DNA from: a virus
Taxonomy: Duplodnaviria > Heunggongvirae > Uroviricota > Caudoviricetes
IMG/VR virus record: IMGVR_UViG_2713896897_000001
Coordinates: 1 to 7,863 of that record
DNA length: 7,863 bases
Strand: one strand, 5' to 3'
In this document: positions 1 to 6,000 of the stretch, piece by piece
Numbering within the stretch: position 1 is the stretch's first letter
Layout: each line of letters begins with the position of its first letter
Position numbers: made by a program

Positions 1-3000
1 ATTCTGAGTGGGTAAGCCACGGTGCAATCTGGAATAACCCACCGTACAGCAATATCAGGCCGTGGGTAGAAAAAGCAGCTGAGCAGTGCATACAACAGCG
101 ACAGACGGTAGTGATGCTTGTGCCAGAGGATATGTCAGTCGGATGGTTCAGCAAGGCTCTGGAGAGCGTTGACGAAGTTCGCATCATCACTGATGGACGG
201 ATTAATTTTATCGAACCATCGACGGGGCTGGAGAAGAAGGGAAACAGCAAAGGCTCAATGCTGCTGATTTGGCGACCGTTCATCAGTCCTCGACGGATGT
301 TTACTACCGTATCCAAAGCGGCATTGATGGCGATCGGGCAGGGCGTCAGGAGGGCGGCATGAGGCGACAGCGACGAAGTTTCACCGACATCATCTGCGAA
401 AACTGCAAATACCTTCCAACGAAACGCTCCAGAAATAAACGCAAGCCAATCCCAAAAGAATCTGACGTAAAAACCTTCAACTACACGGCTCACCTGTGGG
501 ATATCCGGTGGCTAAGATATCGTGCGAGGAAATAAGGGGATTGACGCGATGATTTATCCGGGGCTATATTCCCAGCACGCCAGCAAAATCTGGCGTCGGG
601 ATTGGCGTCCCGGATAGAGACCGCGACAGACACACGCCGCGAGCGTGTTTTTTTATTGTCGAATGCACGCGCACATCTGAATTATGGTGGGCTGTGTGGG
701 GGCGGAGAGATCCGCGCCGGTCGGTTTCCCGGTTACGCCAACCCTGCGCAGTTCACCACCAGACGATTGGCGTCGTCGGTGGTGAGTTATTTAGAAACCA
801 CTCGAGGGCGTCATTATGACAACTCAAATCTCTGTTGAAACTCTCTCCCCGATCACCCATAACCAGATTCCTGTTATCACCACCGAACTTTTGGCGCAGC
901 TTTATGACACAGAAATTCTGAATATCCAGGTTAACTTCACCAGAAATAAAGAGCGTTTTGTCGAAGGAAAGCACTTTTTTAAAGCAGTGGGTGAAGAATT
1001 AAAAAATTTGCGACTTACTTTAAGTAAGTCACAAAATCACATCTCTCCCAAAACCCGCTCCCTCATCCTCTGGACAGAACGAGGCGCAGCCCGTCACGCC
1101 AAAATGCTCGAAACCGATCAGGCGTGGGATGTGTTCGAAAAACTGGAAGACTGCTATTTCAGGCAGTGCAAGAAAAATACTGGCAAACAAGAGAAGAGCA
1201 CCAACGAGCTTTCCGCAAAAGAAGCAAACAGCCTTGTATGGTTATGGGATTATGCCAACCGCTCACAGGCATTATTCCGCGAACTGTATCCGGCATTAAA
1301 ACAAATTCAATCGAACTATTCCGGCAGATGCTACGACTACGGTCATGAGTTCTCGTATGTTATTGGAATGGCGAGAGATGTTTTAATCAACCACACACGA
1401 GATGTTGATATCAATGAGCCAGACGGACCAACAAATCTTTCCGCATGGATAAGGCTTAAGAACAAAGAATTACCTCCTTCACTGCATCGCTACTGACAAT
1501 TGACAACTTAACAAACCCAGCTTCGGCTGGGTTTTTTATTGGTGAATTTTCAATATGAGAGGACATGACAATGAACGAGCTGATAAATAGCAATGTCATC
1601 AAAATGACTAGCATTGAAATCGCTGAGCTTACAGGTAAGCGTCATGACAATGTGAAACGTACCATCGAAACGCTGGCTAAAAATGGTGTTATCCGGCTTC
1701 CTCAAATTGAGGTTTCCGAAAGAATCAATAACTTAGGGTTCAATGTTCAGTACGAGCATTACGTCTTCGAAGGCGAACAAGGTAAGCGAGATAGTATTGT
1801 TGTTGTTGCCCAGTTGTCGCCAGAGTTCACCGCTCGTCTTGTTGACCGTTGGCGAGAGCTTGAAGAAGCTGCGGTTAATATCCCCAAAACGCTACCAGAA
1901 GCGTTGCGCCTTGCTGCTGACCTTGCTGAGCAGAAAATGCAACTGGAAAACCAGCTCGCAATTGCCGCACCTAAAGTTGAGTTTGCCGATCGCGTTGGCG
2001 AGGCCAGCGGAATTTTGATTGGAAACTTTGCAAAGGTTGTTGGAATTGGTCCAAACAAACTGTTTGCGTGGATGCGCGATCACAAAATCCTTATTGCTTC
2101 AGGTTCCCGGCGCAATGTGCCAATGCAGGAATATATGGATCGCGGCTATTTCACAGTGAAAGAAACAGCGGTCAACACAAATCACGGAATACAGATATCG
2201 TTCACCACAAAAATCACCGGGCGTGGTCAACAGTGGCTGACCAGAAAGCTGCTCGATAACGGAATGCTGAAAGTAACAGGGGAGGCTGCTTAATGGCTAA
2301 ACCAGCGCGAAGGAAATGCAAAATATGCAAGGAATGGTTTCACCCGGCATTCTCAAATCAGTGGTGGTGCTGCCCGGAACACGGAACTCAGTTAGCACTC
2401 GAACTACAAAGTAAACAGCGAAAAAAAGCGGAAAAAGCAGCAGAGAAGAAACGGCGACGAGAGGAGCAGAAACAGAAAGATAAACTTAAGATTCGAAAAC
2501 TCGCCTTAAAGCCCCGCAGTTACTGGATTAAACAAGCCCAACAAGCCGTAAACGCCTTCATCAGAGAAAGAGACCGCGACTTACCATGTATCTCGTGCGG
2601 AACGCTCACGTCTGCTCAGTGGGATGCCGGACATTACCGGACAACTTCTGCGGCACCTCAACTCCGATTTGATGAACGCAATATTCACAAGCAATGCGTG
2701 GTGTGCAACCAGCACAAAAGCGGAAATCTCGTTCCGTATCGCGTCGAACTGATTAATCGCATCGGGCAGGAAGCAGTAGACGAAATCGAATCAAACCATA
2801 ACCGCCATCGCTGGACTGTCGAAGAGTGCAGGGCCATCAAGGCGGAGTATCAGCAGAAACTCAAATACCTGCGAAATAGCAGAAGTGATGCCGCATGACG
2901 TTCTCAGTAAAAACCATTCCAGATAACAAGGGAGAAGTCGCATGGGCATAAGAGAACTAAACCTCACCAAAGAACAGCACGATTGGCTGAATGGATGGCT

Positions 3001-6000
3001 TGAACTGTGGGGAGCATGGGTTTATTCAGGTCGTCTGGAAAAGCGCATGAGCAGCGTAATAGCGAAGTTCATGGAGAGCGTAGAGCCGGGAAGAGTTATG
3101 ACAAGGCCAATGTGTAATGATGATGATGGAATGTTGATTTCTCAGGTCGTCGATTCCGTCATGTACATTGACAAGAAAGCCTTTGGCATCCTCCTCAGCT
3201 ACTACGCTCATGGATCTTCCAAGCACGCCATTGCATCTTACTATCATCGTGTCGCAAGACCTCGCAAGATGTTATGCCGGGGCGGCGGGCGCATTCAAAA
3301 ACCATCGCTCGCAACCTGTCGCCGGGAAGTTGACGAAATCCTCAATGCCTCGTTGTTTATGATTTATCCGGCTCTGGATAGTGCGTTTAAAAACCGGAAA
3401 CGTGTAGAGAAAATTAAACATATAGCATAGAACGTGTTGACATCATTGAGCAAATGAGCAACACTATTCGCATAAGCTGCCGTTAGTGACTCTTAAGTTG
3501 CAGCGGTGGCTTTTTTTATTTGGGTCAGTCGTATAAAGGTCATTACGGAAGGCTGTTAACCTTCTTATCGTGGTTCGAGTCCACGCTGTCCCGCCAAACA
3601 TGCTGGTTTAGCTCCAATGGCAGAGCAGTCGCCTTGTAAGCGAATGGGTAGCGGTTCAAGTCCGTTAACCAGCACCATAACTGAGCCGTAGCCACTGGCT
3701 ATCCTGAATTCATCAGTGATAGTTATGCTGCGGCCTTCTTTTTTCCCCTTCCCAATATAAGAACTACGCAATCCGTTACTGGCGGAGGCGTTGCTATGAA
3801 ATCAATGGACAAAATCTCAACTGGCATTGCCTACGGAACATCTGCTGGTAGTGCGGGATACTGGTTTTTGCAGTGGTTGGATCAGGTCAGTCCGTCACAG
3901 TGGGCTGCGATTGGAGTGCTTGGAAGCCTTGTATTGGGCTTTCTCACCTATCTGACAAATCTGTACTTCAAAATCAGAGAAGACAGACGAAAGGCTGCGA
4001 GAGGTGAATAATGCCTCCATCATTACGAAAAGCCGTTGCTGCTGCTATTGGTGGCGGGGCTATTGCCATAGCATCTGTGTTAATCACGGGTCCAGGTGGT
4101 GATGATGGTCTGGAAGGTGCCAGCTACATACCATACAAAGATATTGTCGGTGTATGGACTGTATGTCACGGACACACCGGAAAAGACATCATACCAGGTA
4201 AAACGTATACCGAATCAGAATGCAAAGCCCTCCTGAATAAAGACCTTGCCACGGTCGCCAGACAAATTAACCCATACATCAAAGTCGATATACCGGAAAC
4301 AACGCGCGGCGCTCTTTACTCGTTCGTTTACAACGTGGGCGCTGGCAATTTCAGAACATCGACGCTTCTTCGCAAAATAAACCAGGGCGATATCAAAGGC
4401 GCATGTGATCAGCTACGGCGCTGGACATACGCTGGCGGTAAGCAATGGAAAGGGCTGATGACTCGCCGCGAGATTGAGCGTGAAGTCTGTTTGTGGGGGC
4501 AACAATGAGCAGGGTAACCGTTATTATCTCCGCTCTGGTTATCTGCATTATCGCCTGCCTGTCATGGGCTGTTAATCATTACCGTGATAACGCCATCGCC
4601 TACAAAGAGCAGCGCGATAAAGCCACATCCATCATCGCTGATATGCAGAAGCGGCAACGTGATGTAGCAGAACTTGACGCCAGATACACAAAGGAGCTTG
4701 CTGATGCTAATGCGACTATCGAAAGTCTCCGTGCTGATGTTTCTGCTGGGCGTAAGCGCCTGCAAGTCTCCGCCACCTGTGCAAAGTCAACGACCGGAGC
4801 CAGCAGCATGGGCGATGGAGAAAGCCCAGGACTTACAGCAGATGCTGAACTCAATTATTACCGTCTCCGAGGTGGAATCGACAAGATAACCGCGCAGGTT
4901 AACTACCTGCAGGAATACATCAGGACGCAGTGCTTAAAATAATTTTAATTTCACTGAAATTTAACAAGTGACTTTCAGGAAAATGCCTCGCAGATGCGGG
5001 GCATTTTTGTACCGGTATTTCACCGCGCACCGCAGCGCACAATAAACACCGAACCTGACCCTTTGGAATGGGCCTTTGAGGATACCAGTTAGTGCTGGCG
5101 AGCCTCGGTGGGCTGGTTTCCTGTGCGGCAAAGGTTCATTTCAAAGAAGCAGGCAACGCCATGAATGAATTAATTGCGAATCATGACTTCGACTTTCGCC
5201 AGTTAGTTACCGCAGCAGAAGGTCAACCGGTAACTGACACCTTCCAGATTGCCAGGGCATTTGGTAAACGCCATCAGCATGTGATTAGGGCTATTAAATG
5301 TTTGAGATGTTCTGAGGAATTCTCGACAACCCATTTTTGGGCCGTCGAGAAAATCAATGACTTAGGTATTTTTGACAAGAAACAGATTTACTACCGCATG
5401 GACTTTAGTGGCTTCGTTATGCTGGTTATGGGATTTAACGGGGCAAAAGCCGATGCTGTTAAAGAAGCCTATATCAATGCGTTTAACTGGATGTCAGCAG
5501 AACTCCGTAAGTACAGCGAAAGTTATGAAGCAGAACGTAACGCCGTAATGCTGGAGTACATGAAAGAGAAGGATGTCGCCAGCATGTCAGGCCGTCTGCT
5601 CAATCGCTGGGGGAGAACGAAAAAACCTCAATTGCTTGCAAAGCTGGAACGTCTGGAGAGACAGGGACAGTTTTTATTACCGGGATTCGATAAAGGTATT
5701 CAAGCCTGACACATTATGCGCTGTATCGTCGCCGTATTCCCGCATTAACCATGACCGTAGCCCGACGGGGAATTCCTTCTGCGTGAGTGTGCGGGAATAA
5801 TCAAAAACGATGCACACCGGGTTTTACTGTGCTGACAGACGCAGGGTTACCCTCATAGTCGCTTTTCCGGTGCGATGGTGGAAGAAACAGGGATGTTCAT
5901 CCATCATCACTTTGGATTGATGTATATGCTCTCTTTTCTGACGTTAGTCTCCGACGGCAGGCTTCAATGACCCAGGCTGAGAAATTCCTGGACCCTTTTT

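Follow-up and report, generated by a model that had tools for sequence, protein, structure and literature searches.

Phage growth in Escherichia coli mutants lacking functional integration host factor (IHF) is inhibited by the rha products of phages phi80 and P22 (Henthorn and Friedman, 1995) and by the Roi protein of phage HK022 (Clerget and Boccard, 1996), according to these reports; a further source on inhibited phage growth in IHF-deficient hosts is Mozola et al. (1985). The phi80 record annotates rha with 'DNA synthesis inhibition in IHF- hosts', and a secondary summary describes P22 rha as a late-operon gene. The Pfam domains ANT, ORF11CD3, ORF6N, P22_AR_C and Phage_pRha belong to the ten domains listed for the Bro network's domain-swapping proteins in a paper citing Iyer et al. 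(2002), and a published study of the Gally prophage in strain LF82 names both roi and rha. Here we describe a stretch of 7,863 nucleotides (nt), in the following called the window, which comprises positions 1 to 7,863 of the IMG/VR virus record IMGVR_UViG_2713896897_000001 (Caudoviricetes) and contains a roi-type gene and a rha gene. Each of the two genes carries one match to the IHF core consensus, located at corresponding codons for the peptide motif I-N-x-L-G. A possible reading, to which we give slightly less than even credence, is that these codons are dual-coding, i.e., that the same 13 nt specify a peptide motif and a selectively maintained IHF site in two long-diverged protein families. 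This site would form a shared basis for the toxicity of Roi and P22-type Rha in the absence of IHF, alongside a previously undescribed leader that would hide the ribosome-binding site of rha.

Roi-type and Rha proteins with a common head

Both open reading frames (ORFs) are located on the plus strand. The first-pass annotation of the window had described them as two Rha-domain proteins with a common N-terminus and divergent C-termini, which proved to be correct. The products scored above the cut-off of the Pfam family Phage_pRha (PF09669; 29.9 bits) with 37.4 bits for the roi-type protein and 75.4 bits for Rha, and the heads could be aligned directly (BLASTP, 35% identity over 43 amino acids (aa), E = 1e-5) as well as via the alignments of the two families (hhalign, E = 7e-6, probability 84%, 54 columns). 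With the stricter NCBIfam model TIGR02681 (cut-off 45.95 bits), Rha obtained 73.3 bits and the roi-type protein 17.6 bits, which is below the cut-off. The peptide IEIAELTGKRHDNVKRTIETL was confirmed in the roi-type product and the peptide QIARAFGKRHQHVIRAIKCL in Rha. The shared winged-helix-type Phage_pRha head is real and above chance, and the C-terminal parts of the two proteins are unrelated.

On sequence comparison, the first protein is of the Roi type and a close relative of HK022 Roi. It is 87% identical to the product of the HK022 ORF located between the helicase gene and Q (NC_002166, 34652-35377), 85% identical to VT2-Sakai roi, and 84-98% identical to annotated Roi or DNA-binding proteins of HK629, HK633, N7, and Shiga toxin (Stx) phages. 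Its tail is a KilA-C domain, as had been assigned before (ANT/KilAC, PF03374; residues 128-230, 113.4 bits versus a cut-off of 25.3, E = 8.3e-33). HK022 Roi (Clerget and Boccard, 1996) and the roi products of Stx phages possess the same combination of pRha head and KilAC tail, and their genes occupy the same position in the nin region, adjoining an ant-type gene; in HK022, roi also carries the intragenic IHF core at identical codons. The window copy differs from HK022 and Stx-phage roi in the head, which shows the minority variant VSERINNLG rather than the more common FEKINNLG, and in its surroundings, as the relatives are followed by ninH and a phosphatase gene, whereas both are absent here. 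The ATG at position 1571 is the best start codon of roi, because it is preceded by the sequence GAGAGGA at a distance of 8-9 nt and because most homologues have a length of 240 aa.

The second protein classifies as a P22-type Rha, with an identity of 84% over 176-199 aa to the rha products of P22 and the P22-like phage Phi75 and of 36-37% to that of phi80 (E about 5e-33). Its tail of about 90 aa, which the first-pass annotation could not assign, matched the full length of the Pfam model ORF11CD3 (PF10549; residues 121-174, 82 bits versus a cut-off of 25, E = 3.6e-23), and the same domain was found in 18 of 19 related representatives. ORF11CD3 is a known domain insofar as it has a name, but functionally it is uncharacterized. 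It is better conserved than the head, since 22 of the 33 invariant positions among 47 homologues with identities down to 49% are located in the tail. In an AlphaFold2 model of Rha (predicted local distance difference test, pLDDT, 77), a winged-helix-like head (residues 12-89) is followed by two long antiparallel helices (residues 95-140 and 144-168), and the ORF11CD3 tail is accordingly predicted to be a long antiparallel helical hairpin, a fold that would suit a function in protein-protein contact or oligomerization. For Roi, an alignment of 19 sequences with 84-97% identity did not give a confident fold (mean pLDDT 38.9). The best start codon of rha is the ATG at position 5161, since most homologues comprise 177-183 aa and many of them contain in-frame stop codons upstream of it. 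The 205-aa version in RefSeq, which starts with a GTG at position 5092, was rejected on account of these stop codons and is probably an over-extension.

The gene rha is the last one of the late lysis block and ends about 580 bp before cosN. The order Rz, terminator, leader, rha, ylcI, cosN, Nu1 has a matching counterpart in Phi75 and phi80, and rha of P22 (orf201) and of phi80 resembles the window gene in its position behind the lysis genes and an intrinsic terminator and before the packaging genes as well as in the conserved leader. The phi80 protein differs in that no Pfam match to ORF11CD3 and no exact intragenic IHF core were found. P22 is a pac-type phage, whereas rha of the window resides in a cos-type phage with the Nu1 and A genes of lambda.

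The two genes had been called paralogous copies, which applies to their heads but not in the sense of recent duplicates. Judged by their alignment, the heads are old paralogues with an identity of about 30-35% over about 50 residues, and Roi and Rha represent two old, separately described families that have these residues in common. For a recent duplication within this prophage speaks the presence of the same Pfam domain twice within a single 4-kb stretch. The identity of merely 35% over 43 aa refutes it, as do the close relatives (84-98%) that each gene has at its own conserved position in many phages. In addition, either gene occurs without the other in many genomes (of 5426 complete E. coli genomes, 743 contain rha DNA and 1109 contain roi DNA), and we consider the probability of such an event to be close to nil. 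Co-occurrence of roi and rha was observed in the E. coli prophages H1, H2, H6-H8, and H13, in the Stx2a phage LC616073, and in three IMG/VR contigs common to the locus lists of both genes.

The modular exchange suggested by the first-pass annotation is real, although it had already been published. In PhiR49_1 and JLK-2012, the same locus after the lysis genes is occupied by a gene encoding KilA-N and ORF11CD3, which is preceded by a nearly identical leader, indicating that heads are exchanged on a resident tail. The rha locus itself hence shows head swapping as described for the Bro network. The published list includes each of the five domains found in the three network proteins of the window (see below for the third one), and their architecture shows no difference. 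When 1.84 billion representative proteins were searched with the ORF11CD3 tail, using a query that included the last head residues and might have biased the result, only 41 clusters were obtained; all 18 full-length members scanned have a pRha head, and further head types were not revealed by this search. Roi, Rha, and the shuffling of heads and tails in this network were described between 1995 and 2002. E. coli prophages commonly carry either gene, and the pair is not an unusual duplication. As both proteins are close relatives of long-known ones, their presence is ordinary; what may be new is confined to the IHF motif embedded in the two genes and to the leader of rha.

IHF core matches at the I-N-x-L-G codons

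The IHF core consensus WATCAANNNNTTR has exactly two exact matches in the window compared to 0.40 expected ones, one in roi (AATCAATAACTTA) and one in rha (AATCAATGACTTA). Both encode (R/K)-I-N-x-L-G, and their positions are opposite each other in the profile alignment of the two families obtained with hhalign. In the Rha model, I-N-x-L-G forms part of a loop between the predicted strands 59-65 and 74-80. In segments of 6.5-12 kb each from HK022, Phi75, JLK-2012, and E. coli prophages, exact cores were present only at these codons, and in HK022 the site at the roi codons was the sole core in 10.7 kb. The loci fetched around roi and rha, a redundant set totalling about 1 Mb, contained 282 cores, 276 of which encode I-N-x-L. 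The consensus pattern also recovered the annotated IHF site in attP of phi80.

Within the codons for this motif, the bases that the core consensus specifies were invariant across diverged homologues. In a Rha clade of 55 unique DNA sequences, whose proteins are at least 65% identical, 61 residues are invariant and codon-degenerate, and only Ile65 (ATC) and Leu68 (TTA) are encoded by a single codon throughout. In 33 representatives with a median DNA identity of 73%, AATCAA was the longest and TTAGG the third longest invariant nucleotide run in rha; of the other five long runs listed, four contain Met or Trp codons and the fifth is the start codon. Conservation of the third codon position amounted to 0.88 at codons 58-68 compared to 0.61 for the entire gene. 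A first set of Roi sequences was too shallow for the corresponding test, with 92 of 166 columns being invariant, and therefore more divergent clades were fetched. Among 26 representatives of Roi-type heads that retain I-N-x-L-G (59-100% identity), all 26 use ATC for Ile and TTA for Leu, whereas each of the remaining four Ile and five Leu columns is variable; the base preceding ATC is always A or T. Positions left free by the consensus vary, i.e., Asn is encoded by AAT or AAC, and the codon for x and the third base of the Gly codon change. Elsewhere in the roi and rha genes, ATC accounts for 38% of the Ile codons and TTA for 16% of the Leu codons. The odds obtained by permutation of columns were about 5e-4 for Rha and 0.016 for Roi. 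A conserved RNA fold running through the core site was not found.

An exact core is not a universal property of these genes, and we rejected this idea. It is missing in phi80 rha, in a sister clade of rha, and in the distant Roi-like genes of Vibrio, Klebsiella, Psychrobacter, Edwardsiella, Pseudomonas, and APSE-1 phages.

The rha leader, the C4/isrK cassette and gene order in the window

Coordinates of the features are summarized in Table 1. Between Rz and rha, a terminator-like hairpin is followed by a leader of about 140 nt. The phi80 record annotates a terminator at the place matching the hairpin, and the leader is conserved out to phi80; it is common to rha homologues with protein identities down to 37% and to the KilA-N plus ORF11CD3 genes at this locus, and it was also found in two further loci (L209, 43635-43774; L370, about 1410-1549). 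Minimum-energy folds of four diverged leaders share a GCGC hairpin and a long hairpin that includes pairing with the Shine-Dalgarno region. Counted over the alignment, 68% of the cells were paired compared to 62% in shuffled controls, none of which (0/500) reached this value, and 43-54% in slid controls, and compensatory changes were present in 23 pairs. There was no match of the leader in Rfam. We predict that the long hairpin sequesters the ribosome-binding site of rha. A consensus search did not reveal a promoter-like site in the region 5009-5160 nor a convincing promoter of its own for rha.

Table 1. Features of the window and their coordinates.
Feature	Position (nt)	Strand	Remarks
Promoter-like site	541-570	+	TTGACG-18-TATATT; 10 of 12 consensus positions; consensus match only
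c4-a1b1 target element	564-616	+	RF03163, 50.7 bits (gathering 46.7)
isrK-type RNA	577-653	+	RF01394, 77.3 bits (gathering 50)
Terminator-like hairpin	632-648		Within the cassette upstream of roi
C4 antisense RNA, P1/P7 immI type	680-763	+	RF01695, 64.6 bits (gathering 45), E = 3.7e-11
Antirepressor-like gene	816-1496	+	ORF6N head (PF10543, 73.8 bits) and P22_AR_C tail (PF10548, 103.2 bits); phrog_377 'anti-repressor Ant'
Terminator-like hairpin with T-run, strong	1513-1534	+	9 pairs, 5 GC; between antirepressor-like gene and roi
roi-type gene	1571-2293	+	pRha winged-helix head, about nt 1604-1867; KilAC/ANT tail, about nt 1946-2254 (Pfam)
IHF core match in roi	1723-1735	+	Encodes (R)-I-N-N-L
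tRNA-Asn (GTT) and tRNA-Thr (TGT)	3522-3677		Between Q and the holin gene
Intrinsic-terminator-like hairpin	4980-5008	+	Directly after Rz; largely invariant in five phages
Conserved structured rha leader	5021-5160	+	Small GCGC hairpin followed by a long one that pairs at its base with the Shine-Dalgarno region
rha gene (P22 orf201 type)	5161-5709	+	pRha head, about nt 5233-5496; ORF11CD3 tail, about nt 5521-5682
IHF core match in rha	5352-5364	+	Encodes (K)-I-N-D-L
cosN, lambda type	6291-6302		GGGCGGCGACCT; upstream of Nu1

Directly upstream of roi, the window encodes another protein, which by its ORF6N and P22_AR_C domains is a third member of the Bro network. It had been overlooked in the first-pass annotation, as had the RNA elements preceding it. 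Homology of the ORF6N head to the pRha head was undetected and was rejected (hhalign, probability 0.1%). Based on the Rfam matches, the region from 541 to 816 is assigned to the type of the immI cassette of P1, here located in a nin region. The succession of c4-a1b1, isrK, and C4 upstream of an antirepressor-like gene corresponds to that of P1/P7 immI, where C4 controls icd/ant, and to isrK of Salmonella Gifsy-1. Differences to P1/P7 immI are the insertion into a lambdoid nin region and the subsequent roi gene, and the antirepressor-like protein differs from P1 Ant in its domains. The proposal that roi and rha occupy two moron positions fits roi to the extent that its cassette comprises a promoter-like site and terminator-like hairpins; for rha, which has an upstream terminator, it is less apt, since no convincing promoter of its own was found and P22 rha is described as a late-operon gene.

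The window represents the nin-to-terminase part of a lambda-like prophage. Listing of ORFs and a Pfam scan gave the gene order 3' end of a dam methylase gene, ninE, a gap of 280 nt, the antirepressor-like gene, and roi, then ninG, the Q antiterminator gene, the genes for tRNA-Asn and tRNA-Thr, and those for holin, endolysin, and Rz, and finally rha, ylcI (DUF3950, minus strand), cosN, Nu1, and the start of the gene for terminase A. The location of cosN upstream of Nu1 places rha and ylcI at the right end of the packaged chromosome. Matches to pieces of the window numbered in the thousands for E. coli prophages and in the hundreds for lambdoid, Stx, and P22-like phages. A match over the full window was not found in any record, the best one having 87% coverage and 95% identity. 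The window is part of a mosaic lambdoid prophage. In the region 111-535, the ORF listed for ninE (88 aa) begins with a TTG within dam; because the Pfam match to NinE is limited to residues 31-88, the true start is probably the ATG near position 356, which overlaps the dam stop codon. Downstream of roi, ninG is directly followed by Q (2898-2942); ninH and the serine/threonine phosphatase gene (ninI) of close relatives are absent. The pair of tRNA genes is also present in phage JLK-2012, together with one for tRNA-Gly at the matching position.

A possible role of IHF in restraining Roi and Rha

The first-pass annotation had related both Rha and Roi to the growth of phages in hosts with defective IHF. 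This connection is correct, and it goes beyond analogy, since P22-type Rha and the product of the HK022 ORF at the roi position are closely related to the window proteins (84-87% identity). We regard it as fairly probable that Roi and Rha are regulators which bind DNA and share a head but differ in their tails, that IHF keeps their harm to phage replication in check, and that, within the roi clade and that of P22-type rha, the contact is likely made at the codon-fixed core. IHF would bind to the core inside each gene and, together with binding of the protein itself to DNA nearby, would restrain expression or activity of roi and rha. When IHF is absent, Roi or Rha might be over-produced or misdirected and phage replication might be blocked. 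The rha gene would be held down further by sequestration of its ribosome-binding site in the leader hairpin and by the upstream terminator, which late antitermination would have to read through. The 1996 study of Roi reportedly described it as a DNA-binding protein that binds inside its own gene adjoining an IHF site, with IHF stabilizing this binding.

Several points weigh against the proposed role of the core and the leader. The cores are consensus matches, and a match alone is no proof of IHF binding. Around neither core did we find an A/T tract at the spacing of the lambda H' site. The exact core is absent from rha of phi80, the founding member, and a sister clade of rha with about 50% identity has one mismatch, so the core cannot account universally for the Rha phenotype. 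The codon test for Roi is weaker than that for Rha, as 6 of 44 columns are invariant, and the sequences in both tests are phylogenetically related, so that the counts are not independent events. The IHF site reportedly linked to Roi binding may differ from the present core. For rha, the leader structure was derived from one sequence, and its lower stem was only 57% paired in a sequence-based alignment.

The resemblance to an IHF site could be a by-product of selection for the I-N-x-L-G peptide, with a codon choice that is inherited or biased and is functionless as DNA sequence. The match falls on a peptide motif that is conserved, the sequences have a common ancestry, and the core is missing wherever the peptide motif is missing, all of which would be expected in that case. 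What makes this explanation improbable in our view is the behaviour of the codons: in the 55 unique rha sequences all other invariant degenerate residues vary synonymously, the free positions within the same 13 nt vary as well, the Roi clade, which diverged independently, has the identical two codons fixed, and TTA is an infrequent Leu codon in the rest of these genes. A DNA- or RNA-level function other than IHF binding, such as an operator for Roi or Rha, a recombination joint of heads and tails, or a pause at a rare TTA codon, would account for such fixation too. This possibility is kept alive by the third-position conservation in rha, which extends about 20 nt upstream of the core (codons 58-64), by the domain swapping known from the network, and by the reported close linkage of Roi's own binding site to an IHF site. 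We nevertheless judge it unlikely, as the bases that do not vary coincide exactly with both halves of the IHF core, leaving the 4-nt spacer between them variable, the site lies within the head domain and away from the head/tail junction, and no conserved RNA structure covers it.

There is also a small chance that both proteins are strict antirepressors whose tails inactivate a CI-type repressor of their own or a co-resident prophage, in which case the head would be incidental and the link to IHF secondary. The KilAC domain is common to P1 Ant1 and KilA, and roi lies directly behind the C4 RNA and antirepressor cassette of the P1 immI type. The names given in PHROG and RefSeq ('anti-repressor Ant', 'phage antirepressor KilAC domain-containing protein') point in the same direction but were transferred by homology alone, whereas phage record annotations describe Roi as a DNA-binding protein. 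Moreover, the description of rha as a late-operon gene lets one expect its expression at a time when repression has already been lifted, and its ORF11CD3 tail has no detectable similarity to characterized antirepressors.

What deserves to be retained is the IHF consensus that is fixed by the codons at the matching place in both genes. It turns a 30-year-old puzzle, the block of growth only in IHF-deficient hosts, into a directly testable question, since synonymous changes would remove the site and spare the protein. Judging from the conserved leader of rha and from the C4/isrK cassette preceding the ant-roi pair, these accessory regulators may be under tight control by multiple mechanisms.

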